From the IMG/VR virus record IMGVR_UViG_3300042541_001760, positions 53,689 to 117,688 of that record: a stretch of DNA of 64,000 nucleotides; one strand, given 5' to 3'. The notes beneath the pieces are model-generated. The model was not told the DNA's origin. It saw nothing but the letters and a program-made list of their open reading frames with translations, and did no database searches. Both the position numbers and the translations under genes were made by a program. Shown one piece after another: positions 13,231-38,350 of the stretch (position 1 is its first letter; every line of letters starts with the position of its first letter). This DNA is from a virus.

Positions 13231-15273
13231 ATGAATGAGATAATGGACGGTGATGGACCTTCATCAAGAAAAAAAGGCGACAACGATAGTGGTACTCCTG
13301 TACTGGATAACTTCAGTAAAGATTTAAATAAATTGGCTGAGGAAGGTAAATTAGATTCAGTTATTGGTAGAGATAAAGAGATATTAAGAATTGCTCAGAT
13401 ATTATCAAGAAGAAAGAAAAATAATCCTATTATTATTGGAGAACCGGGTTGTGGTAAGACCGCAATTGTTGAGGGATTGGCAATGAAAATCCAACAAGGT
13501 GAATGTCCGAGAAATTTAGCGGATAAGAGAATTGTCCTGTTAGATATGACATCCATTGTTGCGGGAACAAAATACAGAGGTCAGTTTGAGGAAAGAATGA
13601 AAGTGATTATTGAAGAATTACAATCACATCCCAACATTATTATCTTCATAGATGAGATTCACACCATTGTAGGTGCAGGTAATTCATCAGGATCATTGGA
13701 CGCTTCAAACATATTCAAACCAGCATTGGCAAGAGGTGAGATTCAATGTATCGGAGCTACAACACTTGATGAATACCGTAAAAACTTTGAGAAAGACGGA
13801 GCGTTGGAAAGAAGATTCCAAAAAGTGGTGGTTGACCCTTCAACGAAAGAAGAAACTCTACAAATTCTAAAAAACTCAAAAGACAAATACGAGAGTTACC
13901 ATAAAGTTATTTTTAGTGACGAAGTATTAATCACTTGTGTTGATTTGGCGGACAGATATATTACCGATAGAGAGTTTCCCGATAAGGCTTTTGATATTAT
14001 AGATGAAGTTGGGGCAAGAAGTCAGGTGGATATTAAAATGCCTGAAGTTATTGAGAAATTGAAATTGGACGCAATTGATATCAAACAACAAAAGATTGAT
14101 GTTGTAAAGAAACAGAATTACGAACAAGCGGCAGAACTTAGAGATAAGGAGAAAAAAATTCTGAATAAACTTCACGTAGAAAAAATGAAGTTTGAAGAAG
14201 AAATGAATATCAATAAGAAAGAAGTTGAGATTGAATTGGTTTATGAAGTTGTATCCAATATGACAAAAATTCCTGTTGGAAAACTTAACATTGACGATTC
14301 AAAATCATTGGTTGATTTGGAGGTTAATATCGGATCGAAAGTTATTGGTCAATCTGAAGCGGTTTCAAAAATATCAAAAGCAATTAGAAGAAATAGATTA
14401 GGTATTAAAGACCCAAATAGACCCATAGGATCGTTTATCTTCTTAGGATCCACAGGTGTGGGTAAAACACACTTAGCCAAGCAATTGGCGAAAGAGATAT
14501 TCGGTAGTGAAGATTCTTTAATTAGAGTTGATATGTCCGAATATCAAGAAAAACACTCAATCTCTCGTTTAATCGGATCTCCTCCGGGATATGTTGGTTA
14601 TGATGAAGGTGGTCAATTAACTGAACAAGTTAAAAACAAACCATACTCCGTTATTTTATTTGATGAAATTGAAAAGGCAAATAAAGACATATTCTCAACT
14701 TTACTACAGGTATTGGATGATGGTCACCTTACAGATGGATTGGGAAGAAAAATCAATTTCAAAAATTGTCTTATCATTATGACATCAAATATTGGTGTTA
14801 AAAAATTACAAGATTTTGGGGCTGGTGTTGGATTCCAAACTAAGTCCTATGTTGAAGAAGAACAAAAACGAGACATCCTTAAAAAGGAACTTCAAAAATT
14901 CTTCGCACCTGAATTCCTAAACAGAATTGATGATGTGATAATCTTTAACACCCTAAAACAAGAACAAATTAACGAAATCGTTAAGATTGAACTTAATAAG
15001 TTATCATCAAGATTGACTAAAATCAAATACCAATTCAAATTTGAATCTTCGGTAACTGATATGATATCAAAAGTTGGTTTTGATGAAATGTATGGGGCTA
15101 GACCTTTAAAGAGGGCTATCCAAGATAAAATTGAGGATTATATTTCCGAGGAAGTTCTTAGAGGTGAACTTAAAACCGAAACACCTTATGTGGTTACGGC
15201 AGAGAATGACGTTATTATTATAACGGAAGAGAAAAAAGGAAAGAAGGGTAAAACAAAAAAGGAGGTTGAATAA
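13231..15273 (+). CDS. ClpC/ClpB-like double AAA+ chaperone ATPase lacking the N-domain
   Basis: 680 aa. D1 Walker A GEPGCGKTAIVEGLA and Walker B IIFIDEIHTIVGAG. Short UVR-like middle motif KQNYEQAAELRDKEKKI. D2 FLGSTGVGKTHLAKQLA...RVDMSEYQEKHSISRLIGSPPGYVGYDEGGQLTE...LFDEIEKA...LQVLDDGHLTDGLGR. Confidence 0.9.
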   Translation: MNEIMDGDGPSSRKKGDNDSGTPVLDNFSKDLNKLAEEGKLDSVIGRDKEILRIAQILSRRKKNNPIIIGEPGCGKTAIVEGLAMKIQQGECPRNLADKRIVLLDMTSIVAGTKYRGQFEERMKVIIEELQSHPNIIIFIDEIHTIVGAGNSSGSLDASNIFKPALARGEIQCIGATTLDEYRKNFEKDGALERRFQKVVVDPSTKEETLQILKNSKDKYESYHKVIFSDEVLITCVDLADRYITDREFPDKAFDIIDEVGARSQVDIKMPEVIEKLKLDAIDIKQQKIDVVKKQNYEQAAELRDKEKKILNKLHVEKMKFEEEMNINKKEVEIELVYEVVSNMTKIPVGKLNIDDSKSLVDLEVNIGSKVIGQSEAVSKISKAIRRNRLGIKDPNRPIGSFIFLGSTGVGKTHLAKQLAKEIFGSEDSLIRVDMSEYQEKHSISRLIGSPPGYVGYDEGGQLTEQVKNKPYSVILFDEIEKANKDIFSTLLQVLDDGHLTDGLGRKINFKNCLIIMTSNIGVKKLQDFGAGVGFQTKSYVEEEQKRDILKKELQKFFAPEFLNRIDDVIIFNTLKQEQINEIVKIELNKLSSRLTKIKYQFKFESSVTDMISKVGFDEMYGARPLKRAIQDKIEDYISEEVLRGELKTETPYVVTAENDVIIITEEKKGKKGKTKKEVE

Positions 15274-16600: not shown

Positions 16601-16621
16601 ACTGTTTTTTGTTTATAAATA

Positions 16622-18075: not shown

Positions 18076-18468
18076 GGGTCCAAAATTGGTATCGACTGGC
18101 ATAGTTGGATATTAAGAGCATACCGAGGCTGAGTTAACCTTGTAAAACTGACTTAAACCGATATACGGCAACGTAATCAACAAACTTTCGGCAGTCGGAC
18201 TTGTTCGCACTTCTGAAACCGTAGCAGTAGCCTAAGGCGAATCTACAACGGGTCGGCGTACATACAACCTAGGAACAGAAGTACTTGCAAAAGGTGTGGT
18301 TTCTATCTAAAAAGAAACATGTGGAGGATTAGTTCTCAGTAAACCGAACCACTTTAAAAATAAGGGAATTGTGAAGTTTCGGATTGGTTAGAAAACCAAT
18401 GTCCTATGTATGTAGAACTTAGTAATCAATATGAACAACACGAGGGTTCGAATCCCTCTGGATCCACC
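18076..18468 (+). ncRNA. ssrA: tmRNA (transfer-messenger RNA)
   Basis: The 5' end GGGTCCAAAATTGGTATCGACTGG resembles the E. coli tmRNA 5' end GGGGCUGAUUCUGGAUUCGACGGG. GCATACCGAGG matches the conserved GCAUGCCGAGG. The 3' end carries the T-arm GAGGGTTCGAATCCCTC and the acceptor strand TGGATCC-A-CC, which pairs with the 5' GGGTCCA. That pairing includes a G3:U70 wobble, the alanine identity element. An internal tag frame ends ...SETVAVA-TAA at 18233-18235. The element lies in a 500-nt ORF-free gap and is followed by a T-run. Confidence 0.7.
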
Positions 18469-18503
18469 TCTAAACCTCATCAGAAATGGTGGGGTTTTTT
18501 TAT

Positions 18504-18845
18504 TTAATAAAGATTAGTTATCCAGTTATATCTTGACTCAATCTTAGGTAAGTATCTATCTAATAAAAAATTATATATTTCATCAGACGGAAATTCGTCT
18601 TGACCCCAATTTGATAAATCTCCGTGATACTCGTCAATAATACCATTTATTATACGTCTTTTAAAATCATCAAATTCCATCCTATTACCATCTCTAAGTT
18701 CTCTTAAAAAAATATCAGTAACGTAATTTAAATTATCTAGTATGTCACTATCTAATGAACTAATATCAACTCTTCTACGTAGAAAAGAAGATTCATTAAT
18801 CCCCATCACTTCCTGTATCCTCTGTATATTTTCTTGTAGATTCAT
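18504..18845 (-). CDS. Leader-family protein (MNLQENIQRIQEVMG N-terminus)
   Basis: 113 aa. Conserved N-terminal 15-mer shared with 20289, 20605, 21462 and 22235. A TATAAATAT box abuts the start codon. Confidence 0.6.
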   Translation of the reverse strand: MNLQENIQRIQEVMGINESSFLRRRVDISSLDSDILDNLNYVTDIFLRELRDGNRMEFDDFKRRIINGIIDEYHGDLSNWGQDEFPSDEIYNFLLDRYLPKIESRYNWITNLY

Positions 18846-19580: not shown

Positions 19581-20317
19581 TATCCTTTATCGTTTTTGAA
19601 GTATGATTTGTTATTGTGGTTGAAGAATGAGTTAATCATTAATTTTATCATATACATAACACCTTTATTTTTAAATCTTCTTGGTGGTGTATATACTATA
19701 TTATTTATTCTACCGAACTTATTAGGTTTAATTTGTTTTGATAAAATATAATCCTCGGCGACTTTTACGTCCTCATCAAACCCCCCTATTAACTTAAATG
19801 TTTCGGATCTAATCAACATAAAACCACCAAGACAAAATGGTGTAATCCATTTTGAAAGTGATTGTATTACATCAAATGACTTGTATATGTAATTGTATTC
19901 ACCATTGTCAGTCCTGAACTTCGTGGTTACCAAATCTAAGTTATTTTTATGTATTTTTTTTATTGATTGTGTTAGTATTTTTGCATCCAATAGAAACACA
20001 TCAGAATCCATAAATAATACATAGGGGGTTTTTACTATTTTGAATCCTTTATTTCTGGCTATCCCCGGTAATCCACCATCAATTATTATTAAATCAAATA
20101 GGTCTTTATTATGTGTTAATCTATTAATTAATGATTCATAGGTAACCGAATCGTTTGATGAATCACAAACTATAACATTTACTCCGGTTACGTTCCTCTG
20201 ATAATTTAATAAATCTAATGTTTTTAAAATAACATCTTTTTCATTTTTACAAGGAATTACTATTGTGATTAAATTTTTTAAATCCATATTAATCAATTCC
20301 CAATTTTTCCTTAACAT
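19571..20317 (-). CDS. Glycosyltransferase family 2
   Basis: 248 aa. ITIVIPCKNE...VIVCDSSNDS...IIIDGGLPGIARNKG...LFMDSDVFL (GT-A fold with DXD). Overlaps the downstream gene by 10 nt. Confidence 0.75.
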   Translation of the reverse strand: MLRKNWELINMDLKNLITIVIPCKNEKDVILKTLDLLNYQRNVTGVNVIVCDSSNDSVTYESLINRLTHNKDLFDLIIIDGGLPGIARNKGFKIVKTPYVLFMDSDVFLLDAKILTQSIKKIHKNNLDLVTTKFRTDNGEYNYIYKSFDVIQSLSKWITPFCLGGFMLIRSETFKLIGGFDEDVKVAEDYILSKQIKPNKFGRINNIVYTPPRRFKNKGVMYMIKLMINSFFNHNNKSYFKNDKGYWK

Positions 20318-20594
20318 ATTTAATCATAGGTTTTTCATACATTAAATATGAATCCCAATATTGTTGTTCCGTTCCTGTATCATTAATATCGCTAAAATTT
20401 TTTGTGGCTATGAATTGTCTTACCGTATCATAAATTGCGGTGCTCAAACTTTCACCCTCCTCTATTTGGTCTTTAATATCTTTAATCAGGTCATCTAGTT
20501 CGTCAATATCAAATCTCCTCTTGAACCACGGACTAAGATTTTCATTAAGACCCATCATTTCCTGTATCCTTTGTATGTTTTCTTGTAGATTCAT
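20289..20594 (-). CDS. Leader-family protein (MNLQENIQRIQEMMG)
   Basis: 101 aa. Conserved leader followed by an acidic body. Confidence 0.55.
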   Translation of the reverse strand: MNLQENIQRIQEMMGLNENLSPWFKRRFDIDELDDLIKDIKDQIEEGESLSTAIYDTVRQFIATKNFSDINDTGTEQQYWDSYLMYEKPMIKYVKEKLGID

Positions 20595-20604: not shown

Positions 20605-21459
20605 CTAAGCAAAATTATTTAATGATGAAGAATCATTATTTTTATTCATAGCAACAGTATTCATTAAATCAATAAAATTATTCATCTTTTCTTGGTTAGT
20701 TCCTTTTAAAGATTTAAAAATGTCTTGATAATGTACGTTTTTTAATATAGTTGGATTTTTAATCATTTTATTATAATCATCTTTAGTAAATTGTTTTTTC
20801 CCCGCATCGTATATACCTTGTTGATTTAGTAAATACCTAATTGGTTGGATTCTATTAATAAATTCACTTGGGGTTGATTCATAATCAAAAACCTTATCAC
20901 CGATTTTATAATTGGGGTATTTTTTATCACCTCCTTGGGTATACTTATAAATTTTTTCTTTTGTTGATTGTGGTATTCTTGAACCTCCGTCATCAACCAG
21001 GTGACCAAATTCATGAGCCGGTATAGTTTCATATCCGGTAACTGGATTCCAATTTTTTGGATTATACTCTTTTTCAAAATACACATGACCTTTCTTATCA
21101 TAACCTTTTGCATCAGGAGTCCATTTATTTTTTTTCCATTTTTTATCTAAATAATCATAATACTCACCCTCATAATTTTTAGGTATCATTAACCCTGATA
21201 CATATCCCGGTTCTTTTGAGATAGCTCTTACGAAGTGTGTTTGGTCTTTAACATTATCCAAATTTTTTAATCTCTCTTTTCTTTCTTTTTCTATAAAATC
21301 TTGAGGTTTATTAGGAAATTCTTTTTTTAATCTTTCTAAGTACATTGTCGAATTTAAATATGATTTCCACCACTGTAGTTGTTTGTCGAATTCACTGGTG
21401 GTTTGCTCATTTAAGCCCATTACTTCTTTAATTCTTTGTATGTTTTCTTGTAGGTTCAT
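20605..21459 (-). CDS. Leader-family protein with HExxH zinc-metallopeptidase motif
   Basis: 284 aa. MNLQENIQRIKEVMG leader. C-terminal AHEFGHLVDDGG (HExxH). Confidence 0.6.
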   Translation of the reverse strand: MNLQENIQRIKEVMGLNEQTTSEFDKQLQWWKSYLNSTMYLERLKKEFPNKPQDFIEKERKERLKNLDNVKDQTHFVRAISKEPGYVSGLMIPKNYEGEYYDYLDKKWKKNKWTPDAKGYDKKGHVYFEKEYNPKNWNPVTGYETIPAHEFGHLVDDGGSRIPQSTKEKIYKYTQGGDKKYPNYKIGDKVFDYESTPSEFINRIQPIRYLLNQQGIYDAGKKQFTKDDYNKMIKNPTILKNVHYQDIFKSLKGTNQEKMNNFIDLMNTVAMNKNNDSSSLNNFA

Positions 21460-21461
21460 AA

Positions 21462-22238
21462 CTATTTTTTAGGAGTTGGGATTTTAGTGTCTTTTATAAA
21501 TTTTCCATACGCATTTTTATATGACTTTTGCGTTTCATCATTTACGTTTTTGGTGTATTGCCAATTCCAATATAAATCTTTGTTTGGTTTGAATCCATAA
21601 AATTTATGAACTTCCTTTTGGGTTGCAGTTACATTCTCACCATTCCAATTCTGACCGACACAAATAAAACCTGTCTCAATATCTTTAATAATGTTTGATT
21701 CACCCAATGTTGTATGTCTATTTTCTAACCAATTCAATCTCTCAATTAAGTTTTGGTAATACATATTGGTCTGACCCCATCTTATAGAACTGAAAAATAA
21801 AACAACATCCGATTCAAATAACTCTTTGGATATCTTCCATAATTCGTCTGAGGGTTCATTTATATTAACCCAACATCTATGATCACCTGACGGGTTTTTA
21901 TCTTTGTCTTTAAGTTTGGCTTTTAATAATCCACAAGAGTTTCCGTCTTTTCTTGATACATTACCTTCACAGGGTAAAATTTTAAGTTCTGGTACATCTA
22001 TCAATACTGACTTATCACCTAATTGGTCTTTTAAATACATCGCAATCATTTTTGATTTTGGTATATCAATATTCTTATCATCCCAATTATATCTGTTTGA
22101 GCAACTTAATAATAAAACTTTTTTTTTCTTTTTTAGAATATCTAATGTTTTCTCAATTGATTTCCATGCGTCCGATTGAACCATTTCTTCCGAAATCATC
22201 ATCTCTCTTATTCTATCTATATTTTCTTGTAGGTTCAT
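21462..22238 (-). CDS. Leader-family protein (MNLQENIDRIREMM), possibly flavodoxin-like body
   Basis: 258 aa. Leader present. The body (VLLLSCSNRYNWDD...DVVLFFSSIRWGQTN) is of unknown fold. Confidence 0.55.
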   Translation of the reverse strand: MNLQENIDRIREMMISEEMVQSDAWKSIEKTLDILKKKKKVLLLSCSNRYNWDDKNIDIPKSKMIAMYLKDQLGDKSVLIDVPELKILPCEGNVSRKDGNSCGLLKAKLKDKDKNPSGDHRCWVNINEPSDELWKISKELFESDVVLFFSSIRWGQTNMYYQNLIERLNWLENRHTTLGESNIIKDIETGFICVGQNWNGENVTATQKEVHKFYGFKPNKDLYWNWQYTKNVNDETQKSYKNAYGKFIKDTKIPTPKK

Positions 22239-22756
22239 TTCTTTGTCTTTTTTACGCAGTTAGGGTATCTTTTACCAAACATTGTCTTCATTCCTTTTTG
22301 GGTGTATCCTGCCCAACATTTCTCTGTGAGTTCCCCTTCTTTCATTTCAGACATTTCATCAATTTCCTCCGAATAATCCTCATTCTTTAAACAATGATAT
22401 TCGTCACCAACATTTTGGAATAATTTACCTTTAAATTTGTCCGCATATTTCTCATTTAGATATTCTATTAGTAAATTATTAAATTCATCCAAATTTAATA
22501 ATACCGAATCTGAGTAAGCCCTAAGTTTCCTATAAGGACCGCACTCTGTTACCCATAAAACACCCCAATCATTTCTATGGAATACGTCTTTATCTTTTTT
22601 ATTATACCATTTACCATATACGTAATTCTTATCACCATATTCAACTTTTAAATCTAATTCGTTAAATACTCTATCAAAGCGACTAAACAGAAAACTTCTA
22701 ATTTTTTCTTCTTTGGTTTCCCTCAATACTCTTCTTATGGTTTCTTGTAGATTCAT
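22235..22756 (-). CDS. Leader-family protein (start moved to internal Met giving MNLQETIRRVLRE)
   Basis: The track ORF starts at 22780 (MFMLYLLHM...). The conserved leader and the nucleotide repeat begin at the Met at 22756. Overlaps the upstream gene by 4 nt. Confidence 0.5.
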   Translation of the reverse strand: MNLQETIRRVLRETKEEKIRSFLFSRFDRVFNELDLKVEYGDKNYVYGKWYNKKDKDVFHRNDWGVLWVTECGPYRKLRAYSDSVLLNLDEFNNLLIEYLNEKYADKFKGKLFQNVGDEYHCLKNEDYSEEIDEMSEMKEGELTEKCWAGYTQKGMKTMFGKRYPNCVKKTKK

Positions 22757-22779: not shown

Positions 22780-22840
22780 AAAAAAGGTCGTCACAGGGAC
22801 AACCTTTAAGGGTATTGGTTTTGGTGAATTGGATTTTTTT
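22780..22840. repeat. Conserved intergenic stem-loop element, copy A
   Basis: AAAAAAGGTCGTCACAGGGACAACCTTTAAGGGTATTGGTTTTGGTGAATTGGATTTTTTT. Near-identical in layout to copy B at 24330-24390, with compensatory changes in the stem. Confidence 0.5.
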
Positions 22841-22850: not shown

Positions 22851-22862
22851 AGTATTTATATG
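22851..22862 (+). promoter_or_regulatory. Putative -7 promoter box (AGTATTTATATG)
   Basis: 15 nt upstream of ATG 22877. Confidence 0.35.
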
Positions 22863-22876: not shown

Positions 22877-24331
22877 ATGAAAATATTAGTATCGGAAAGT
22901 CAATACAAAAGATTAGTTGAGAGTTTATTAGATGAATCCATTTTAATTATAGGTGATAGTCATAGCGTAGATGCAGGATTCACTTACTCAAGTTTATTAA
23001 AGAAAAAATTTTCGGATGTAAAAATATCAGCATCGGTTGGCCAAGGAACATCTTGGATGAAATCAGAATTAGCTAGAGAGTTAACCAAAAAACATTACGA
23101 TAAAGTTATAATTTGGGGTGGGAACAACGATATTGGTTCAACCTCCTCTATATCTGGAGCAATATCAAACATACAACAAATGGTTAATATGGTTAACTCA
23201 CAAGACGGTCAATCATATGTAATCATTGGTTTTGACCAAGAAGTTTTTACCAAAAAAGTAAAAAATAAAATGAGAGAAAGATATATAGATTTGCAAAAAC
23301 AGTTATCTAGTGAGATAAGTAATGCCGTAATAATTCCTGCCTTTGATATTGATAACTCTTACACATCAGATAATGTACACGGAAATAAGAGTGCTCACGA
23401 AAAAGTTTTTAGAACCGTTACGGAGTATCTACAAAAAACAACACAAAAAGAAAAACAAAAAGATGAAAGTAAAAATTCTGAAACGTTAATGTCAAGATTA
23501 GAAGATTATTTGGATTCTGGTTTAGAATTAGTTGCAAGAAAACGAGGTTCAATGGTTTATGAAAAAGAAGTTGAGGATATACAAACCGCTCTCCAATTTT
23601 TAGGGTTTTCTTTACCTAAGTGGGGTGTAGATGGAAAATTTGGGCCAGAAACAAAAAAAGCAACTGAAAACTTCCAAGAAGAAAATGATTTGGAAGTGAC
23701 AGGAATTTTTTCAATCAAAGATTTTGAAAAACTTATTGATGTTTTGGAATCAAAGGGTGTTACTGATGAAGATTTCATGAATGTTCAGAAAAACAAAACA
23801 GAAGAGTTATCATCAGATTTTGAATCGACGGATTTTGAAACAATTGAAAATTCTGGAATTCAAGTTAGTAAATACCCAAATGATATCGAAAATAGATTAC
23901 AGGATATTTTAGGTAAAGAAAAATTCAATATATTTGTTTCCAAGTGTCGAGGAATTGGGTTAGACCCTTTGATTGCAATTAGACAACTTTATACAGAATC
24001 TGTCGGTTTTAGTCCTGACGTTTTGACTTGTAAAAGAAAATCACCTGCGGGAGCCATGGGAATTGCTCAATTTATGCCGGGTACTTGGCCAAGTTATGGT
24101 AAAGGTAGTCCATGCAATGTCGATGACGCATTGGACGCTTATATTAGGTTTATGGATTATTTACTAAAAAGATATGAAGGTCGAGTAGATCTGGCAGTTG
24201 CGTCATATAATAGTGGTCCAAACTTAAATATATATAAGAAAACATATAACTCAAATACACCTTTCGCATCACTTAAAGGTAAAATACCAGGAGAAACATA
24301 TAAATACGCATCCACAATTCTACAAGCATAA
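22877..24331 (+). CDS. Three-domain lysin: SGNH/GDSL esterase, PG-binding domain, lytic transglycosylase (SLT)
   Basis: 484 aa. SGNH blocks IIGDSHS (I), IIWGGNNDIG (III) and DNVHGN (V). PG_binding_1-like IQTALQFLGFSLPKWGVDGKFGPETKKATENFQEEN. SLT motifs LYTESVGF (catalytic Glu), AMGIAQFMPGTW and VASYNSGP. The N-terminus MKILVSESQYKRLVESLLDES is leader type b. Confidence 0.85.
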   Translation: MKILVSESQYKRLVESLLDESILIIGDSHSVDAGFTYSSLLKKKFSDVKISASVGQGTSWMKSELARELTKKHYDKVIIWGGNNDIGSTSSISGAISNIQQMVNMVNSQDGQSYVIIGFDQEVFTKKVKNKMRERYIDLQKQLSSEISNAVIIPAFDIDNSYTSDNVHGNKSAHEKVFRTVTEYLQKTTQKEKQKDESKNSETLMSRLEDYLDSGLELVARKRGSMVYEKEVEDIQTALQFLGFSLPKWGVDGKFGPETKKATENFQEENDLEVTGIFSIKDFEKLIDVLESKGVTDEDFMNVQKNKTEELSSDFESTDFETIENSGIQVSKYPNDIENRLQDILGKEKFNIFVSKCRGIGLDPLIAIRQLYTESVGFSPDVLTCKRKSPAGAMGIAQFMPGTWPSYGKGSPCNVDDALDAYIRFMDYLLKRYEGRVDLAVASYNSGPNLNIYKKTYNSNTPFASLKGKIPGETYKYASTILQA

Positions 24332-24390
24332 AAAAAGGGTTATCACCGAAGTAACAACCCTTTAAGGCTATTGGTTTTGGTGGATGGGTT
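24330..24390. repeat. Conserved intergenic stem-loop element, copy B (probable bidirectional terminator)
   Basis: AAAAAAGGGTTATCACCGAAGTAACAACCCTTTAAGGCTATTGGTTTTGGTGGATGGGTTT. The stem AAGGGTT/AACCCTT replaces AAAGGT/ACCTTT of copy A. Lies directly after the lysin stop codon. Confidence 0.5.
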
Positions 24391-24702
24391 TCCAATAAAC
24401 CCAAGTGTAATGTTAGTGACACATCACTCTCGATACGTTCGACCACGAGACGGATATTTTAATCGGTTAACTAAAACCAATGATTCTGTCCTTTTTGTTA
24501 ACTCTAAAGGACAACGTGAGTAACATATCATCTCACGTATTAAAGAGTAACGATTTTTTTGTTTTACGGGTATGGGGTGTAAAACTATTTAAACCATCGA
24601 AAAAAATAAAAGACCCCACAGAATAAATTTATTTAATCTTTTAATTTAACCTCCTAAAGAGACGGCTTTATTCTATATTCCGTCAAAAAAACGAGTCACT
24701 TG

Positions 24703-24777
24703 TTGCGGGAGCAGGAATCGAACCTGCGTGGTTGAGCTTATGAGACTCAGCTGGATCCGTCTCCAGTCTACCCCGCC
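24703..24777 (-). tRNA. tRNA-Met (CAT), initiator-like acceptor stem
   Basis: Reverse complement GGCGGGG-TA...CTCATAA...GCAGG-TTCGATT-CCTGC-TCCCGCA-A. The acceptor closely resembles E. coli tRNA-fMet (CGCGGGG/CCCCGCAA), including a 1:72 mismatch. Anticodon loop CTCATAA. The D-arm is irregular, so the call needs tRNAscan. Confidence 0.55.
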
Positions 24778-25794
24778 TTGGCTTACGTTGAGATTACACG
24801 TTTTAGTAGAAATCTTTGATGGGATTATTGTTTCCCCACGTATCCACCATCTTTTGAATGGTAATTTCCAGTGATGGTCTTTTAGGTGTACCACTCCTTG
24901 AATTTCTAACTACTCTCCTACTAATCCGTTCTCTTCAAACTTGCGGTCTGATTAGGTCTTCGACAACCTAGAGATTTTTCATAAGAATACATTCTGACTT
25001 GCGGTCTTCGTGTGCAATGGACATCCCATTACTATGTAATCACCTTTCGTTAGAAACTGATAGACACTTTTGCTTTCTTTTTAAATTTTTAGTAAAAAAA
25101 TCGAGTTATGTGTTGTGGATGTATCAAAGTAGTGGTCTACCGTAAGCTTCGTCGTCTTTTGAACAACAAAATACTAAACTACTTCGTGAAGTGTCCCCAC
25201 CTCCATACTTTAAGATAACTTCGTAACAAGATTTTGGTAAATCTTTGATAAGGACAGTAGCGACACCACTCGTTCTCTATCTTACCTTTCGGTTTTAAGT
25301 TATCTTTCATATTGGAACACGCAATTGTATCGTTGGAGCGATAGTTCTCGCAATATTCCTATGGGTTATTCTTATTGGTGTTCCCACCTCAACTTGACAA
25401 TCCACATTGCCTTGTCACCCAACCACTTTCTCTAAAGCGTCGCCCTCAATACTGAAGGTCAGGTGATATCCCACTTGTGTACTCAAGTTCAGTTACCTGA
25501 ACCGCAAACTCACTTACACTTGTGAATCCACTTTATCCTACTTTCGTAGTTTATTTAACGACCATACACGGCCGACTATCTTTATGTTTTACCGAAATAA
25601 AACAATGGATAATATTTTTTATGTCAAAGAACAATAATCATTTTTACTAATTAGAACTATGCTACTGACGGCTTAATTAGGGGTTCTCACCGCTCTAAAA
25701 TGTCAGGTTCACACCAGACCTCCTTTTCTAATTGTTTGACAAAGGTAGTAAATAAATTTCATTTGTCAAGCAATTTTTTAATTTTTTTTCGTCA

Positions 25795-26358: not shown

Positions 26359-27102
26359 ATGAATTTAATAAGAATAGCGCAAAAACTAAGTAGGTTCTTT
26401 ACTCGCCAAAACAGAGCGAGTGATGTTTTAAGTGAATTAATAAGAGACAAAAAACATAGGGAATTTTTTAATGCGGTAAAACCTTTAGATGGGATTAAAT
26501 TAGCATTCCTTATAAATGGTGTTAATAAGGGGTTAGATTTAGAATCAATGTTAGTAGAGATTGAAAATAACCTAATTTCATTCACAGTAGTGGAGTTTGA
26601 AGATGTCGCATCAATGGTTACTTGTAATGAGTGTAATGGTAATGAGACGATTAGTTGCGATTATTGTGGTGGTGATGGTTATATTAGCAGTGATGATGAT
26701 GATGAAGACGATGAAGAGTGTGACCATTGTGGTGGTGACGGATATGAACTATGTGACCATTGCGATGGAAACGGAGAAATTGAGGATGATACAACAACCG
26801 ATTATACAATTTCAACTTATGTCACTTTTGATAGTAAATTAAGTGAGGACGCTGAATTACTTTATAGTGATGATATGGAAGTAACTAAAGACACGTTAAA
26901 CCTTAATTTTATGAACCCAAAATTAATTTATTTGGGTATGGAGCGACGTAGTGGTGAAAACGATAATATAGATGAAGATTATTGGGGTAATTCTTATGTC
27001 AATGACATTGACCGTGAAAACGACCCCAATACCTATTTTAGATCTAACTCAATAACAATTAATAGAAATATTTCTAATTTATCTCACACATTTAGAGGTT
27101 AG
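26359..27102 (+). CDS. DnaJ-type zinc-finger (4x CxxCxGxG) acidic protein
   Basis: 247 aa. Repeats CNECNGNE, CDYCGGDG, CDHCGGDG and CDHCDGNG separated by acidic runs. A GTATTTATTT box sits 13 nt upstream of the start. Confidence 0.55.
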   Translation: MNLIRIAQKLSRFFTRQNRASDVLSELIRDKKHREFFNAVKPLDGIKLAFLINGVNKGLDLESMLVEIENNLISFTVVEFEDVASMVTCNECNGNETISCDYCGGDGYISSDDDDEDDEECDHCGGDGYELCDHCDGNGEIEDDTTTDYTISTYVTFDSKLSEDAELLYSDDMEVTKDTLNLNFMNPKLIYLGMERRSGENDNIDEDYWGNSYVNDIDRENDPNTYFRSNSITINRNISNLSHTFRG

Positions 27103-27431
27103 AATTTATTTCTATGAATATCATTCTCAAGTCTAAGTCGGTCATTTTCTTTCTGAAGATAATCAACTTGGATGTGTAGTTTAGCAACCTCAGCGGTTAG
27201 TTCCGTAATTGTAATTCTCATTAACTCCTTATCTTTTGAGGACTCCTCCAACAAAGTTTCTAACTTAACAACTCTTTCTCTAAGATCGTCGCGATACATC
27301 ATATCATCTCTATGACCTATCATTTCCTTCTTAGTTTGTATTGCTAATTTTCTCTCCCAGAATTTCCATGCCGCGGTAGAGGTTAGTACAGTGATAAGTG
27401 TTATTACGATTGTATATACCTGTTGTTCCAT
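27099..27431 (-). CDS. N-terminal TM helix plus coiled-coil protein (i-spanin-like topology)
   Basis: 110 aa. The TM segment VYTIVITLITVLTSTAAW is followed by a heptad-rich coiled coil. Confidence 0.4.
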   Translation of the reverse strand: MEQQVYTIVITLITVLTSTAAWKFWERKLAIQTKKEMIGHRDDMMYRDDLRERVVKLETLLEESSKDKELMRITITELTAEVAKLHIQVDYLQKENDRLRLENDIHRNKF

Positions 27432-27489: not shown

Positions 27490-27810
27490 TTATTGTTTAA
27501 ATATGTTTACAAAACCTGTGATGGTTAGTGTTACACCAGCAACAAACATAATATTATTTGGTGTATTTAAAAAAATGTTAGGTTTAACGTAGGTTGAAGT
27601 GTATGAATTTTTAAAAGATGAGTAACTACTTACCCACTCTCCATCCGCCCTATTTTGGAGAATGGCGGCAGTTAATAAACTACCACCACTAACCGTTAGT
27701 ACCAAAGACACATTTTTGTTTTTTGAAACAGTCATATGTTGAGCCTCTGTGTTACCACAAAGACCCAACACTAACAACAAGACAAAAATAACTATTTTAA
27801 AGTTTTTCAT
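27490..27810 (-). CDS. Signal-peptide protein (possible lipoprotein/o-spanin-like)
   Basis: 106 aa. N-terminus MKNFKIVIFVLLLVLGLCGN with a Cys after the hydrophobic core. Confidence 0.4.
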   Translation of the reverse strand: MKNFKIVIFVLLLVLGLCGNTEAQHMTVSKNKNVSLVLTVSGGSLLTAAILQNRADGEWVSSYSSFKNSYTSTYVKPNIFLNTPNNIMFVAGVTLTITGFVNIFKQ

Positions 27811-29057: not shown

Positions 29058-29070
29058 ATTTTTTATTTAG

Positions 29071-29144
29071 TGGGCCATCTTGGACTCGAACCAAGGACTT
29101 GCGGATTATGAGTCCGATACTCTAACCAACTGAGTTAAAAGCCC
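29071..29144 (-). tRNA. tRNA-Met (CAT) (elongator or Ile-lysidine type not distinguishable by eye)
   Basis: Reverse complement GGGCTTT-TA-ACTC-AGTTGGTTA-GAGT-A-TCGGA-CTCATAA-TCCGC-AAGTC-CTTGG-TTCGAGT-CCAAG-ATGGCCC-A. Good cloverleaf. One mismatch in the acceptor stem and one in the anticodon stem. Confidence 0.7.
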
Positions 29145-29323
29145 TAATTATTTTACAAATATACAATTTTATTTTTAATCCTCCAAATCCAAATCGTCAA
29201 ATCTATTATTTTTTTGTGGTTTAGATTTGGAGGTTTTAACCTTTTTACTTTGATTGTTACTTTTTGACTTAGGTTGGTCGTTCTTCTGACTACGATATGT
29301 CTTGCCCATTTTTAATTTAATTA

Positions 29324-29998
29324 TTATCCTACGATTCCTTTAATATCATCTGTGTGGTGGTCAAATCCCATTTCAGAACTGATTGGTTGTTTATCCAACA
29401 TAGGAACAACCTCAGTCATTAGGTTATATGGTCTGAATTCAGGGTGACCATCCATTCCAACATCCATTCTCTTACCATTACCAAATCGTTTATCTGTCGG
29501 CAAGTGACAATGCCCGTGAAGGTGACCAATACCCTTGTTTAATCCATCCCAAGATGAAATTGGGTAGTGCATAATGACAAATTTATTTGAACCCATTATT
29601 AGTTCAGTATATTGGTCAACACTTTTAAATAGACCCCTAACTCCGTCTTTATTGTTACTGATATGGTGGTCGTGATTACCAAGAGTTAGGTGAATGTTTT
29701 TACACACAAGTCGATCCCAAAATTTACGAATGTTCTCAAAACCACCAAAACTCCAATCACCAAGGTGAATTAGAATATCATCCTGACCCACAACCTCATT
29801 GATATTACGAACAATAGTGTCATTCATTTCATCAAGAGATGAAAAATCACGAGTTTGGTCAACAGGAATAGTTCCATCAGCCAATCTCCAATCTGTAACA
29901 CCCCTACAAATATTTTTATGACCGAAGTGAGTGTCGGAAGTAATCCAAACATTTGGAAAACGACCTTTACTATCTGCGGTTATTTTAATTGGTTTCAT
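29324..29998 (-). CDS. Calcineurin-like metallophosphoesterase (candidate 2',3'-phosphatase of an RNA-repair set)
   Basis: 224 aa. Full motif set SDTHFGH, HLGDWSFGG, LGNHDHH, HGHCHLP. Confidence 0.75.
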   Translation of the reverse strand: MKPIKITADSKGRFPNVWITSDTHFGHKNICRGVTDWRLADGTIPVDQTRDFSSLDEMNDTIVRNINEVVGQDDILIHLGDWSFGGFENIRKFWDRLVCKNIHLTLGNHDHHISNNKDGVRGLFKSVDQYTELIMGSNKFVIMHYPISSWDGLNKGIGHLHGHCHLPTDKRFGNGKRMDVGMDGHPEFRPYNLMTEVVPMLDKQPISSEMGFDHHTDDIKGIVG

Positions 29999-30276
29999 AG
30001 TTTTGTTTTTTCGTGTGATATGTACTTGTATTTCTTAACACTTTTTGAAATTAATGTTCCATTCTTCCTAACAAGATCCCAATCTTCATTTATATAAATG
30101 TAATCATAATAGACGACATTTATGGTATCTCTTTTTTTATCTAAATGGATTATTTCAAGTTTATCCGAATAAATGGCTTTATTACCTGTCATATTAGGAT
30201 TACAGGTTTGTATTGTTATGAAGAATGTCAATAACAATCCTGTTAAGAAAATGTATTTTAAAAATTTAGAAGACAT
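29995..30276 (-). CDS. Putative lipoprotein
   Basis: 93 aa. Signal peptide ending FFITIQTCN. Confidence 0.4.
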   Translation of the reverse strand: MSSKFLKYIFLTGLLLTFFITIQTCNPNMTGNKAIYSDKLEIIHLDKKRDTINVVYYDYIYINEDWDLVRKNGTLISKSVKKYKYISHEKTKL

Positions 30277-30478
30277 ATGCGATTAATTGGAATACTGCGA
30301 TTATGGTTAATAGTAATGAAGTGCCAAATAAAAACATTTGAATTAGAATTGACATTGATGAGTATTTACCGTTTCTTGGGGATATGAAGTTTCTTAGCAT
30401 TTTTAGTTTATTTTAGTTTGTCAAAGGTAATATAAATAATCGGTTAAAACAAATTTTTTGTGGATGGAGTAGGAAACA

Positions 30479-30781
30479 TTATCCCCATCCCCTATTAAAA
30501 CCAACCTTTTCTTCATCACGACCAATTGACTGAGTAATTAACATATGTTTTGTAACATCTTCAGGACTCAACCAACCAACAACATCGTTATTATCTGAAG
30601 TCCATATCTCAAAGGTATTGACACCATCACCATATAAACCCTGAGACCCACCAACAACGGATATTGAATGTCCGTTTGGAAAATCCAATGTCGCTTGAAC
30701 TCCACCCCTACTATTTGGGTGGGGATTAAAGACCAAATCATCAAATGTTTTTACTTTAAATTTTTCAAAAAAATCTTTCAT
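30479..30781 (-). CDS. Hypothetical protein
   Basis: 100-aa ORF. Confidence 0.45.
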   Translation of the reverse strand: MKDFFEKFKVKTFDDLVFNPHPNSRGGVQATLDFPNGHSISVVGGSQGLYGDGVNTFEIWTSDNNDVVGWLSPEDVTKHMLITQSIGRDEEKVGFNRGWG

Positions 30782-30957
30782 AATATAGTTTTTAAATTGT
30801 TAGTATCCCTTTATTTGTTGGATTTTAGTACCAACACCCAATCTCGTAACTACTGATGCGGATAATTCACCCGTTACCGTTTGATTGGACTGAGTGGCTT
30901 CACTAGTAACGTCAACCAAATTATCTGTTGTTAACGTTTAACCCCCACTCTTGTTGT

Positions 30958-31037
30958 GATCAGGACAGGATTCGAACCTGCTTTAGGGCTTACGACCTAT
31001 GATAATCTATTTACGACAACAACCATGTCGCCACCTG
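30958..31037 (-). tRNA. Aberrant tRNA-like element / possible tRNA pseudogene
   Basis: The reverse complement has acceptor GGTCAGG...CCTGATC-A and a canonical T-arm GCAGG-TTCGAAT-CCTGT. I could not fold a canonical anticodon arm from the intervening 31 nt. Confidence 0.3.
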
Positions 31038-31260
31038 ACCATTTCCCCACCTTGAGATTATTGGTGAGTAGTTATTTCGGTTTTTTCTTCTGTTCCAAAA
31101 CCTGTGAGGCGTCCCTCGTGAAAACAGTCAATCCTTACTTGGAAGCTAGCGGATAAGCTAACTTTGACTCCAATGAGTAGTCAATTAAAGCTGATACTAC
31201 CAAACACTTACCTATTGTTTAAGTCTTAAGTTAAAGACTCTGAGTATCTCTTACTCATTG

Positions 31261-31348
31261 TGGGTAGAGAGGGACTCGAACCCCCGATGTTTTGTCATAT
31301 GACCTTTGATCTACAATCAAAGCCGTTCGCCGCTACGGTAACCTACCC
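31261..31348 (-). tRNA. tRNA-Tyr (GTA), type II with long variable arm
   Basis: Reverse complement GGGTAGG...TTTGA-TTGTAGA-TCAAA-(variable arm GGTCATATGAC...)-GGGGG-TTCGAGT-CCCTC-TCTACCC-A. Anticodon loop TTGTAGA. Confidence 0.65.
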
Positions 31349-31460
31349 GACGTTAAAAAATAGGAAAATAGAAGATGGGCGAGTGGACATCTATTTTTAT
31401 GATTAGCATTACTTGGATTCACCTCCACCAATAATGGTATTCCCTAATCAACCTATCAAG

Positions 31461-31532
31461 AGGGTGGTGAGGGATTCAAACCCCCGTTGTTCTCCTTTGC
31501 AGGGAGATGCCTAATCGCTCGACCAACCACCC
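31461..31532 (-). tRNA. tRNA-Cys (GCA)
   Basis: Reverse complement GGGTGGT-TG-GTCGAGCGATTAGGCA-TCTCC-CTGCAAA-GGAGA-ACAAC-GGGGG-TTTGAAT-CCCTC-ACCACCC-T. Perfect 7-bp acceptor stem. Confidence 0.7.
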
Positions 31533-31573
31533 TTTTAAACACCCCCAACATTAAGTCAGGGGTGTTGATTTTT

Positions 31574-32401
31574 TTAATTAATGTTATACATCATATTTGA
31601 CCCATTACCTGTCATTACACTTGGTAATGTTCCGTTCCACTTATCAAGATACATTTTCTTAAGTAGTTCAGGTGTCAAGTTACGTTGTTGTAGTTCATAA
31701 GCCTTAGCCTCTGATTGCGCCCGAATTACCATTTGTGCGGAGTCACCTCTTGCCACTGCGATTTTTTGGTTAGCCTGAGCAACTGAGATTTTAACCTTAT
31801 TTTCCTCAGTTTGTGCGTTCTGAACCGCCCGATTCTTTAGAGTAATTGACTCAACCAATGCCGGTGGTGGTGTCAGATTACTTGTTAATTGAGCCAATAG
31901 GAATCCTTTTGGTTTAACTTGAGCAATGAATCTCTGTCGTACTGTATTCTCAAAAAGTTGTCGATTCATTAGTAAACTATCGGGAGTAAAATCCCCCGCA
32001 GTTGAACGAAACGCTTCTAACATACAGGTCTTTAAGAATCCATCCTCAATTTCGGGTAGGTCTCGTCGGAACGTCTCAAAGATAGAACTTACCGAATCTG
32101 AAATTACACTATAGTTGATGGCGGGAATTGCAGTAAAGATAGTTCCACCCTTCATAGTTACCTCAATGGTGTCATACTCCTTGTGTTGTACATAAGTCGG
32201 CCACTCATATACTTGACTCATCCACGGAATATAGAATTGCCATCCCGTTACTAATTCTGTTTTACTAACACCTTTTTCAGATGCGGTGTTGTTTACTTTA
32301 ATACCTACGTGACCTGCGTCAATTCGCTCACAAGAAGCGGGAATAAACATTAAAAAGGATCCGAGGACTACGAACAATGCAATTATTTTAATTTTTGACA
32401 T
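31574..32401 (-). CDS. SPFH/band-7 (HflC/prohibitin-like) membrane protein
   Basis: 275 aa. N-terminal TM segment followed by ERIDAGHVGIKV...LVTGWQFYIPW... A C-terminal Ala/Gln-rich helix ISVAQANQKIAVARGDSAQMVIRAQSEAKAYELQ is typical of HflC/HflK. Confidence 0.8.
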   Translation of the reverse strand: MSKIKIIALFVVLGSFLMFIPASCERIDAGHVGIKVNNTASEKGVSKTELVTGWQFYIPWMSQVYEWPTYVQHKEYDTIEVTMKGGTIFTAIPAINYSVISDSVSSIFETFRRDLPEIEDGFLKTCMLEAFRSTAGDFTPDSLLMNRQLFENTVRQRFIAQVKPKGFLLAQLTSNLTPPPALVESITLKNRAVQNAQTEENKVKISVAQANQKIAVARGDSAQMVIRAQSEAKAYELQQRNLTPELLKKMYLDKWNGTLPSVMTGNGSNMMYNIN

Positions 32402-32627
32402 TTTGGTTTGGTTTGTTTTTATTGATTAGTGAAGTTAGAAAATTTACTGTTTGATAAAATGCGAATCCGATTATACATAACCCTATGATTACTGTGGGGG
32501 TATCAGGTTGGGTACATAGGTATACTCCCGATATGGCAATCAAACCTAATAGGATTAATTTTGAAATTGTGTCCCATAAGGGATCATTAATTAGTTTCAT
32601 ATAAATTGGTTTTAGATTGTTTGACAA
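32388..32627 (-). CDS. Small two-TM membrane protein, translationally coupled to the SPFH gene (possible holin or NfeD-like partner)
   Basis: 79 aa with two hydrophobic helices. 14-nt overlap with the SPFH gene. Confidence 0.45.
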   Translation of the reverse strand: MSNNLKPIYMKLINDPLWDTISKLILLGLIAISGVYLCTQPDTPTVIIGLCIIGFAFYQTVNFLTSLINKNKPNQNVKN

Positions 32628-32661
32628 AGATACAAAATTAATTCAATAAACCAAAATTATT

Positions 32662-32895
32662 TTAATAATCCTTATCGTCGTCGTATGATTTAATATTTGC
32701 GAGTTCAATATTTAACCTCTTAACCTCATCGTTTAATAGTTTAATATCTTCCAATCTTTCTTTCAAAACAGAAAATGAATAATTAATTATTTCTTTTTCT
32801 GAATCTGTTAAATCTTCTTTTTTTATTAAGAGATAATTTAACACACCGTCAGTATATTCTTCTTTGGGGGTTTTGAATAAACTATCTTTCATCAT
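32662..32895 (-). CDS. Hypothetical protein
   Basis: 77-aa ORF, coiled-coil-like. Confidence 0.4.
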   Translation of the reverse strand: MMKDSLFKTPKEEYTDGVLNYLLIKKEDLTDSEKEIINYSFSVLKERLEDIKLLNDEVKRLNIELANIKSYDDDKDY

Positions 32896-32898
32896 ATT

Positions 32899-33132
32899 TT
32901 AAAAAATTGAATGGTCTCCGTGACTATTATCCCATTCATCAGGAATATAAGGATTGGTGTTAATAGGTTCGGGTTGGATTGTGTCAGAAATAACACATAA
33001 TAGATCCAATCCCTCTGACTGAGCGGAATCCGATTGGTAAATACTTTCACCATATGGATATTTGCTAAAGTAAGCATCAAGAAGATTTACAACTTCCGTT
33101 ATTTTTTGGTTGTTCCAATTAATATTATACAT
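32899..33132 (-). CDS. Hypothetical protein
   Basis: 77-aa ORF. The overlapping 62-aa ORF 32892-33080 in another frame is probably spurious. Confidence 0.4.
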   Translation of the reverse strand: MYNINWNNQKITEVVNLLDAYFSKYPYGESIYQSDSAQSEGLDLLCVISDTIQPEPINTNPYIPDEWDNSHGDHSIF

Positions 33133-33151
33133 TGTTATGGGGTTTTTTAAG

Positions 33152-33235
33152 AGCCGAGGGCCGGATTCGAACCGGCGAGGACTTAATGTCTCCTGATTAC
33201 AAATCAGGTGTAATCAACCACTATACGACCTCGGC
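33152..33235 (-). tRNA. Type II tRNA (long variable arm) with anomalous anticodon loop TTTGTAA
   Basis: Reverse complement GCCGAGG-TC-GTA-TAGTGGTTGAT-TAC-A-CCTGA-TTTGTAA-TCAGG-(AGACATTAAGTCCTC)-GCCGG-TTCGAAT-CCGGC-CCTCGGC-T. Perfect acceptor stem and a type II D-arm. Standard numbering gives anticodon UGU (Thr), which does not fit a Leu/Ser/Tyr-type body. Confidence 0.55.
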
Positions 33236-33245
33236 TTATTTTTAG

Positions 33246-33319
33246 TGATCCCGATTGGATTCGAACCAATGACCTACGCATTAGAAGTGCGTTGCTCTAT
33301 CCTGCTGAGCTACGGAACC
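33246..33319 (-). tRNA. tRNA-Arg (TCT)
   Basis: Reverse complement GGTTCCG-TA-GCTC-AGCAGGATA-GAGC-A-ACGCA-CTTCTAA-TGCGT-AGGTC-ATTGG-TTCGAAT-CCAAT-CGGGATC-A. Confidence 0.7.
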
Positions 33320-33326
33320 ATATTAT

Positions 33327-33494
33327 TTAAATCTTTCTCACTTCATACTTATAACCACTATCAGAATTTTTCTCCATAATATCTCTCATCTTATCCGCTT
33401 CCTCAAAAGTATCAAATTCTAAGACCTCATTATGGGTATCAATTATAATAACCGGCATTTCAACACCTTTATTGTTTTTAATGAATTTTAAAAT
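33327..33494 (-). CDS. Small ORF (55 aa) between tRNA genes, not in the supplied track
   Basis: ATG at 33492-33494 (MYVILKFIKNNKGVEMPVIIIDTHNEVLEFDTFEEADKMRDIMEKNSDSGYKYEVRKI). Below the 60-aa threshold of the track. Confidence 0.3.
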   Translation of the reverse strand: MLKFIKNNKGVEMPVIIIDTHNEVLEFDTFEEADKMRDIMEKNSDSGYKYEVRKI

Positions 33495-33587
33495 TACGTA
33501 CATACTCCACTATTAATTATCGTTTTATTTTGTTTTACAAAGGTAATATAAATTTATCAAAACTACAACATCTTTATATTTTTTTTG

Positions 33588-38329: not shown

Positions 38330-38350
38330 ATCTTTATATAAATACTTTTA

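Follow-up and report, generated by a model that had tools for sequence, protein, structure and literature searches.

A predicted phage cell wall enzyme joining an SGNH esterase to a lytic transglycosylase, with a possible built-in peptidoglycan de-O-acetylase

Peptidoglycan O-acetylation is a widespread bacterial defense against lysozymes and lytic transglycosylases and a virulence factor in Neisseria, Campylobacter, Helicobacter, Staphylococcus, and others. For a lytic transglycosylase to act, the C6 hydroxyl of N-acetylmuramic acid must be free; 6-O-acetylation blocks these enzymes, and bacteria with O-acetylated peptidoglycan need Ape esterases to act ahead of their lytic transglycosylases (PMC1199599). 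In Neisseria, the esterase Ape1 and the Slt70-type transglycosylase LtgA bind and stimulate each other (PMC7083599). The block and its relief by an Ape esterase, on which the original prediction for the locus described here drew, are therefore documented chemistry (PMC1199599, PMC7083599). Bacteroidetes carry gene clusters for the modification, which reaches 69% in Bacteroides fragilis and 27% in Bacteroides thetaiotaomicron (PMC1199599). On the phage side, modular endolysins, SGNH domains in virion lysins, and Lipase_GDSL_2 domains in metagenomic endolysin candidates are already known as separate pieces, and all two-domain virion lysins known at the time of one review came from phages of Gram-positive hosts (PMC5380687). 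In phage T4, short N-terminal propeptides ending in L/I-x-E load diverse proteins into the capsid, and the gp21 protease cleaves after that motif (PMC9026906).

The gene analyzed here lies in a window of 64,000 nucleotides, by which we mean the whole stretch of DNA studied, and the portal and large terminase genes of this window mark it as phage. The ORF is intact, as originally proposed, running from an ATG start to a TAA stop, and the features of the gene and its flanks are as follows.

22877..24331, + strand: whole ORF, encoding leader, SGNH esterase, peptidoglycan-binding domain, and lytic transglycosylase (484 aa plus stop)
22877..22927, + strand: N-terminal leader MKILVSESQYKRLVESL, aa 1-17, with V5-S6-E7 and L13-V14-E15
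22937..23434, + strand: SGNH (GDSL-type) serine esterase domain, aa 21-186
22958-22960, + strand: Ser28, SGNH block I, in G26-D27-S28
23039-23041, + strand: Gly55, SGNH block II
23126-23128, + strand: Asn84, SGNH block III, in G81-G82-N83-N84-D85
23369-23371, + strand: Asp165, SGNH block V, in D165-N-V-H168
23378-23380, + strand: His168, SGNH block V
23552..23752, + strand: PG_binding_1 peptidoglycan-binding module, aa ~226-292
23885..24328, + strand: family-1 (Slt70-like) lytic transglycosylase domain, aa 337-484
23996-23998, + strand: catalytic Glu374, in LYTE374-S375
22853..22860, + strand: candidate phage promoter element TATTTATA, 17-24 nt 5′ of the ATG
22781..22830, no strand assigned: upstream copy of a ~50-nt direct repeat (hairpin plus CCTTTAAGGGTATTGGTTTTGGTG)
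24332..24385, no strand assigned: downstream copy of the repeat, with a hairpin at 24334-24363

By its sequence, the product is a three-module phage enzyme predicted to attack the host cell wall. Two of the modules score above their curated Pfam cut-offs, PG_binding_1 at aa 230-278 (E 7e-11, 42.6 bits against a cut-off of 23) and SLT at aa 388-460 (E 2e-8), and the third, Lipase_GDSL_2 at aa 25-174, falls below it when the single sequence is used (E 4.6e-6, 27.7 bits, cut-off 32.9). An NCBIfam scan of the protein returned only weak, subthreshold matches, to the binding and SLT parts. The AlphaFold model built from the alignment (mean pLDDT 82.9) has confident domains at 21-186 (esterase), ~230-292 (binding module), and 337-484 (transglycosylase), with low confidence at 188-201 and 312-322, and the three modules are accordingly modeled as joined by flexible linkers. 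The assignment of the binding module to the PG_binding_1 family is in keeping with its modeled helices at 230-241, 257-269, and 280-292. In the catalytic C-terminal part, a 24-sequence alignment shows no variation in the motifs E374-S375, AGAxGIAQF, and YNSGP, and the QLxxES and YNSGP motifs occur in 114 of 120 fused proteins. The protein thus has the goose-lysozyme-like fold and the E-S, G-[LI]-x-Q, and A-Y-N-x-G motifs of family 1 (Slt70-like) lytic transglycosylases, and the binding module and SLT domain described earlier, with GIAQFMPGTW at 395-404 and YNSGP at 444-448, are confirmed. When a profile of the C-terminal two-thirds was searched, the binding domain matched phiKZ gp144 (3bkh, E 3e-6) and CtpB, and the catalytic part matched the SLT domain of a phage tape-measure protein (9b45) and Slt/Slt70-type enzymes.

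All of the SGNH blocks named in the original prediction (GDS, G, GxND, and DxxH) were found in the N-terminal domain, and they are strongly conserved. An alignment of 127 fused relatives to a domain profile retains Ser28, Asp165, and His168 without exception (127/127), Asn84 in 126, and Gly55 in 124; G26-D27-S28, G81-G82-x-N84, and D165-x-x-H168 are invariant in the 24-sequence alignment, which extends to ~40% identity, and G55 and D85 are kept in at least 90% of its members. Loss of the catalytic Ser or His on proper alignment, which the prediction had named as fatal to it, was not seen, as every catalytic residue is retained. The domain shares the four blocks and the alpha/beta/alpha fold of the SGNH/GDSL hydrolase superfamily, and the assignment is secure, because a 14-sequence esterase profile matches SGNH proteins of solved structure across the entire domain (E 2.6e-8) and the block residues are so widely kept among the fused relatives. 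On these sequence grounds the domain is an SGNH esterase that retains the whole Ser-Asp-His triad and the oxyanion-hole residues, and it is predicted to be catalytically intact.

The kind of ester that such a domain might cleave is suggested by its relatives. The best matches to the esterase profile are uncharacterized Bacteroides GDSL-like proteins and a pneumococcal PAF-acetylhydrolase-like protein, followed more weakly by PAF acetylhydrolase Ib, TesA, and sialate O-acetylesterases; the nearest characterized sequence relatives, PAF acetylhydrolase Ib and the sialate O-acetylesterases, are acetyl-specific, and carbohydrate acetylesterases rank high when the folds are compared. A reading as an O-acetyltransferase (PatB/OatA-like) was rejected, the fold similarity being no better than to esterases and the periplasm offering a phage lytic enzyme no acetyl donor. 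Ape1 structures carry a carbohydrate-binding beta-domain inserted within the SGNH fold, and no such insertion is present in the compact model. Nor is there a specific sequence relationship through the family motifs I-VII, as the Ape1 sequence meets the esterase profile in block I only (E 0.03). Since neither of these two defining features is found, the esterase appears from sequence and model to be a generic, minimal SGNH fold and not a member of the Ape1 family; it may nonetheless work like Ape1. The proposal of a phage wall enzyme uniting an intact SGNH esterase with peptidoglycan-binding and SLT domains stands on motifs and alignment, and it is kinship of its esterase with Ape1 that finds no support.

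The architecture is not an accident of one genome. Database searching yielded more than 300 homologs, with identity down to ~36% and the layout kept, which argues against a chance arrangement. The best 120 of these share the three Pfam domains almost without exception and span ~480-550 aa; one homolog, on a 261-kb contig, is 100% identical, and others lie on contigs of 128-292 kb. The architecture recurs in over 100 relatives, in large T4-like phages of Bacteroidota; all of them lie on phage or metagenome contigs, and 10 full-length three-domain loci were found on IMG/VR viral contigs. The fusion was not found in 185,579 species-representative bacterial and archaeal genomes (one per species), where the SLT part alone does find relatives. 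This absence, together with the occurrence in IMG/VR, suggests that the fusion is a phage invention, as it appears to be from these sequence searches. A tblastn search of 50,697 phage records gave matches to the SLT domain only (coverage 23-25%) and no cultured relative, and the viral proteins closest in structure over the full length are unnamed ones from uncultured Caudovirales (BFVD). Variation within the family includes a 699-aa variant (P0030) with an inserted HCxxGxxR phosphatase-like segment and a phage (L092) with three tandem paralogs of the fusion.

The esterase subfamily is wider than the fusion. When 1.84 billion representative proteins were searched with the esterase profile, 1015 esterase relatives were recovered, and 271 proteins were classified: 112 combine esterase, binding module, and transglycosylase (leader in 108, membrane segment in none), 8 have esterase and transglycosylase but lack the binding module, and 135 are stand-alone esterases, with a signal peptide or membrane anchor at the N terminus in 72. 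Because the stand-alone relatives are mostly so equipped, the subfamily would work outside the cytoplasm. The neighbors of the stand-alone, membrane-anchored relatives are unannotated phage-like genes, and a PHROG scan of ten of these neighbors was uninformative. Across the subfamily the esterase adjoins wall-directed modules (SLT, PG_binding_1, Phage_lysozyme2, and VanY), and by these sequence criteria it is an extracytoplasmic, wall-associated module that phages have used repeatedly.

The terminase of this phage is T4-like, its best cultured match being a Flavobacterium myovirus at 27% identity. One phage protein has SprB repeats, PKD domains, and a CHU_C type IX secretion C-terminal domain, and Gln follows the predicted signal peptides of the phage, as in the Q-rule that is typical of Bacteroidetes (PMC5837995). 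The SprB/CHU_C protein and the Gln residues point to the host, which is very probably a member of the Bacteroidota, and we regard the phage as a distant T4-like virus of such a host. O-acetylation is documented for Bacteroides and Porphyromonas rather than for the host of this phage, probably a freshwater bacterium, a point to be entered against a de-O-acetylase.

Collectively, the simplest reading of an intact esterase that is always fused to a transglycosylase, usually with an anchor, in phages of Bacteroidota is a built-in peptidoglycan de-O-acetylase. In such an enzyme the binding module would tether the protein to the sacculus, the esterase would remove 6-O-acetyl groups from N-acetylmuramic acid, and the freed C6 hydroxyl would let the transglycosylase form its 1,6-anhydro product, so that the enzyme could cut O-acetylated peptidoglycan that is otherwise resistant. 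The fusion would in that case unite covalently what bacteria assemble as the LtgA-Ape1 complex. This is the most economical reading and is chemically sound, with the substrate being what we infer; weighing sequence and analogy, we give it an even chance of being right. One relative argues against it, as the same esterase subfamily is there fused to a VanY peptidase. VanY peptidases are not blocked by O-acetylation, and the esterase may therefore have a more general envelope role, its link to glycan cutters not being absolute.

Two routes to the wall come into question for the enzyme, passage through holin lesions at lysis and delivery as virion cargo at entry, and we consider them about equally likely. 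The second is raised by the leader. Its V5-S6-E7 and L13-V14-E15 are both of the form (L/I/V)-x-E; the type-b leader MKILVSESQYKRLVES noted at the outset is borne out, M1, E7, and Q9 being invariant in the 24-sequence alignment; E15 is invariant too. The consensus reads MK(I/L)(I/V)(I/L)(S/T)E.Q..., followed by a second (L/I)-x-E. In all of 116 relatives residues 5-7 are (I/L/V)-x-E, and in all 116 a second (L/I)-x-E ends at residues 12-24, against a background of 0.004 per position. The leader comprises the first 15-20 residues; ~97% of the fusion proteins have it, and in every case its last residues are (L/I)-x-E. It is predicted at low confidence to form a helix at aa 7-15 (AlphaFold). Related leaders start at least 12 ORFs that are otherwise unrelated, in this window as well as in relatives, and commonly beside the fusion gene; one such leader protein (51238-51753) had no match in the 50,697 phage records.

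The same window encodes a gp21-like protease: a partial ORF at 3-395 on the minus strand, downstream of the portal gene, matches T4 gp21 (5JBL, E 7.5e-8). Another candidate for the prohead protease, the ORF at 951-1679, was set aside, having no PDB or PHROG match. A propeptide ending in L/I-x-E that is shared by unrelated proteins and a gp21-type prohead protease in the same genome are two marks of T4-type capsid-targeting (CTS) cargo, and both are present; their co-occurrence makes the leader a good candidate, by analogy, for a T4-style capsid-targeting propeptide cut by the gp21-like protease. If so, the fusion enzyme may be packaged in the capsid as cargo rather than serve as a lysis endolysin. 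T4-type cargo goes to the cytoplasm, which makes such a destination awkward for a wall enzyme, and we know of no wall enzyme among the T4 internal proteins. The full combination, in which a natural single-chain Ape plus lytic transglycosylase directed against Bacteroidota O-acetylation is also CTS cargo packed by the gp21/core system and delivered at infection, strikes us as unlikely.

The DNA around the gene bears on its expression. Exact copies of TATTTAT(A), the motif of the element upstream of the ATG, also lie ~12-39 nt 5′ of ~12 other predicted starts, and relaxed copies precede ~15 further ones, suggesting a candidate promoter element. Since it precedes genes of all kinds, the motif does not date their expression. 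The T4 late promoter TATAAATA was considered as the upstream signal and rejected, as it is not enriched in gene orientation and TATTTAT(A) is the motif that recurs. The direct repeat brackets the fusion gene and has exactly two copies in the window (chance expectation 0), and the hairpin in its downstream copy is, by its sequence, a predicted minus-strand intrinsic terminator.

The strongest alternative concerns the role of the protein only: it may be a plain holin-dependent endolysin whose leader has no targeting function, a reading to which we assign slightly less than an even chance. Its binding-module-plus-transglycosylase layout is like that of the phiKZ gp144 endolysin, its top PHROG match is "endolysin," and a hydropathy scan of the fusion protein found neither a membrane nor a signal segment (19-residue maximum 1.1), so that it resembles a holin-dependent endolysin in being a soluble muralytic protein without an export signal. 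Its location does not fit the canonical form, which is a lysis cassette with holin or spanin genes alongside. No holin was found adjoining the gene; around it are a tRNA, a GOLLD RNA, and genes that bear the leader and have no known function. A comparison of gene neighborhoods among the relatives found no conserved lysis or tail module, the sole consistent trait being the presence of other leader-bearing genes. Nor is the fusion the only lysis candidate, because the phage has other wall-directed proteins, namely an Amidase_3+LysM protein with a typical endolysin layout (57127-57861), a large M23 peptidase with a peptidoglycan-binding domain (9576-11903), and a further PG_binding_1 protein (42319-43767), and because in one relative a PG_binding_1+GH19 gene adjoins a holin-like gene 7 kb from the fusion copy. 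The separate amidase and this holin-like/GH19 pair both count against a plain endolysin, as does a leader that is conserved as strongly as the active sites and is common to unrelated proteins, which in several relatives cluster around the fusion gene.

Less probable, and in our judgment rather unlikely, is that the esterase is directed at lipid or lipoprotein and damages the outer membrane or its anchors, so that one protein would perform two lysis steps or act from outside. Precedents of a kind are mycobacteriophage LysB and the GDSL "lysis-associated" proteins of some Pseudomonas phages. The Pfam name of the domain is GDSL lipase/acylhydrolase, weak matches by sequence and fold extend to TesA and lysophospholipases, and the VanY fusion indicates an esterase not tied to glycan cutters. 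Moreover, a synthetic chimera of a KZ144-like endolysin and a GDSL lipase taken from a phage lysis cassette kills from outside only with both active sites intact (PMC12173070). Set against these points, the esterase is a minimal SGNH core of ~165 residues with no lid or hydrophobic insertion in the model or alignment, its best characterized relatives act on acetyl esters, and the tether beside it binds peptidoglycan, not membrane.

That the esterase instead deacetylates a surface polysaccharide (capsule, O-antigen, or exopolysaccharide) at entry, as part of a virion-associated enzyme, seems to us more doubtful still. Phages G7C and Vi have SGNH deacetylase tailspikes, the BFVD structural matches include SGNH-bearing tail spikes and tail fibers, and among the PHROG families that the SLT part matches are "lytic tail protein" and "internal virion protein with endolysin domain." The model, by contrast, contains no beta-helix and no module for trimerization or tail attachment, every part of the protein is assigned to the leader, the esterase, the binding module, or the SLT domain, and the membrane-anchored stand-alone relatives would face the periplasm and not the cell surface. 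Finally, the low single-sequence Pfam score might suggest that the SGNH domain is a degenerate, noncatalytic spacer, but that reading is effectively refuted by the conservation of its catalytic and oxyanion residues down to ~36% identity and disfavored by the confident fold model.

If the enzyme is a built-in de-O-acetylase, phages have evolved a direct counter to peptidoglycan O-acetylation, and the fusion would offer a modular template for enzyme antibacterials against O-acetylated walls. Were the de-O-acetylase and the capsid-cargo proposals both true, this would be the first phage-encoded peptidoglycan de-O-acetylase and the first wall-degrading enzyme known as CTS cargo. The family of more than 100 members offers natural variation, with forms lacking the binding module, tandem paralogs, and the phosphatase-like insert, and the leader together with the gp21-like protease may help to find which proteins an uncultured group of T4-like phages packages.

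A full-text literature search found no paper on a phage enzyme with SGNH and lytic transglycosylase domains or on a phage peptidoglycan de-O-acetylase; the architecture, its conservation, and the idea of a phage de-O-acetylase all appeared undescribed. Fernandez-Ruiz et al. (2018) found Lipase_GDSL_2 in predicted endolysins of uncultured phages, describing it as "with no obvious role" and giving no architecture, residue analysis, or mechanism (PMC5968864). The Staphylococcus phage phi11 protein Gp44, an endopeptidase plus SGNH hydrolase, likewise places an SGNH domain in one protein with a wall-degrading domain, but proteins of its type are tail proteins of phages with Gram-positive hosts and the partner is an endopeptidase (PMC5380687). 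The engineered ELP-E10, a KZ144-like endolysin joined to a phage GDSL lipase, has the same three kinds of module and needs both active sites; it differs in being artificial, in carrying its lipase at the C terminus, and in its proposed target, an ester of the outer surface and not peptidoglycan acetate (PMC12173070). In phiKZ gp144 and EL gp188, also from large phages of Gram-negative hosts, a PG_binding_1-type module precedes a transglycosylase, to which the fusion adds the N-terminal esterase and the leader; its catalytic domain, moreover, matches Slt70 and tape-measure SLT domains and not the catalytic domain of gp144. The T4 CTS internal proteins resemble the leader-bearing proteins in that unrelated proteins share a short N-terminal propeptide ending in L/I-x-E and a gp21-type protease is present, but the leader here is longer (15-22 aa), has another sequence, and is a putative propeptide. 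The Neisseria LtgA-Ape1 pair likewise matches an SGNH esterase with a family-1 lytic transglycosylase (PMC7083599). Here, in contrast, both predicted activities reside in one phage-encoded polypeptide with PG_binding_1 between them, and the esterase lacks the inserted domain of Ape1 and is no closer to Ape1 than it is to other SGNH enzymes.

Two families of conserved N-terminal leaders head otherwise unrelated proteins in the window, one with the consensus MNLQENIQRI.E.MG..E (type a) and the other with MK.I.LTESDL.RIVKRVISE (type b, the leader carried by the lysin), and both terminate in (L/I)-x-E, the site cut by the T4 prohead protease, gp21. A tandem array of five type-a genes adjoins the lysin gene, and the same leaders head other genes in relatives. 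The window also contains part of a gp21-like gene, located at its edge and downstream of the portal gene.

Leader-bearing ORFs and the gp21-like ORF
3-395, minus: T4 gp21-like prohead core protease, partial ORF (match to PDB 5JBL, E 7.5e-8)
12270-12659, minus: leader-bearing ORF
18504-18845, minus: leader-bearing ORF
20289-20594, minus: leader-bearing ORF
20605-21459, minus: leader-bearing ORF, type a
21462-22238, minus: leader-bearing ORF
22235-22756, minus: leader-bearing ORF
40161-42350, minus: leader-bearing ORF
42319-43767, minus: leader-bearing ORF
46024-47202, minus: leader-bearing ORF
48998-49627, plus: leader-bearing ORF
51238-51753, minus: leader-bearing ORF
53474-53845, plus: leader-bearing ORF

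A weak hit (E 2e-7) links the product of 20605-21459 to the C-terminal portion of a PHROG "tail protein"; this product also bears a zinc-protease-like HEFGH (HExxH) motif.

Besides the lysin, three wall-directed proteins are encoded within the window, and a pair of small ORFs about 3 kb from the lysin gene, the lipoprotein-like member of which is conserved in the relative L085, could represent a spanin-like pair. The CHU_C domain at the C terminus of an 858-residue protein is a type IX secretion domain, that is, a Bacteroidota-specific secretion signal on a phage protein. The phage further encodes a two-ring AAA+ protein, and a ClpP protease is encoded on a related phage contig (L003, 98-826).

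Wall-directed, putative lysis, secretion-signal and AAA+ proteins
9576-11903, minus: 775 aa, nucleotidyltransferase-like, PG_binding_1 and M23 peptidase
42319-43767, minus: 482 aa, type-a-like leader and C-terminal PG_binding_1
57127-57861, plus: 244 aa, Amidase_3 and LysM
27490-27810, minus: small lipoprotein-like ORF (LGLC lipobox)
27099-27431, minus: adjacent small ORF, N-terminal membrane helix
35054-37630, plus: 858 aa, signal peptide, SprB repeats, PKD domains and CHU_C
13231-15273, plus: ClpC/ClpB-like protein (AAA, AAA_lid_9, UVR, AAA_2 and ClpB_D2-small)

The lysin family itself varies in architecture. In a 699-residue relative, P0030, the esterase is separated from the binding module by an inserted segment with a phosphatase-like HCAHGADRTG loop. 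One phage (L092, 7122-10660) carries three tandem paralogues, one of which is esterase-only while two combine esterase and transglycosylase without the binding module.

Structured RNAs are also encoded in the window, with a full-length GOLLD RNA lying about 450 nt downstream of it and immediately adjoining a tRNA-Met gene. ARAGORN made no call for the phage-encoded tmRNA. Small ORFs are interspersed among the genes of a tRNA cluster.

Structured RNAs and tRNAs
18076-18469, plus: tmRNA (Rfam RF00023, 83 bits)
24702-24777, minus: tRNA-Met
24785-25186, minus: GOLLD RNA (Rfam RF02032, 305.9 bits against a gathering score of 150)
29070-33662, minus: six tRNA genes (Met, Tyr, Cys, Thr, Arg and Glu)

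A candidate promoter element of the phage, the motif (G)TATTTAT(A), recurs in gene orientation before many start codons, at a distance of about 12-39 nt (for example, at 22853-22860, 1698-1705, 12674-12681, 16614-16621, 38337-38344, 40137-40144 and 57108-57115); the exact form precedes about 12 genes and a relaxed form about 15 more. Its reverse complement is the T4 late-promoter consensus TATAAATA. The lysin gene is itself flanked by two copies of a ~50-nt direct repeat (22781-22830 and 24332-24385), the only two within the window, where none is expected. Each consists of a hairpin, the stem sequence of which differs between the copies, followed by CCTTTAAGG(G/C)TATTGGTTTTGGTG, and both hairpins look like terminators on the minus strand. 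The sole matches to the core TATTGGTTTTGGTG are the two loci encoding the identical lysin protein. Stem-loop elements flank mobile genes in T4-type phages, and, by analogy with these elements, the repeat pair may mark the boundary of a cassette.
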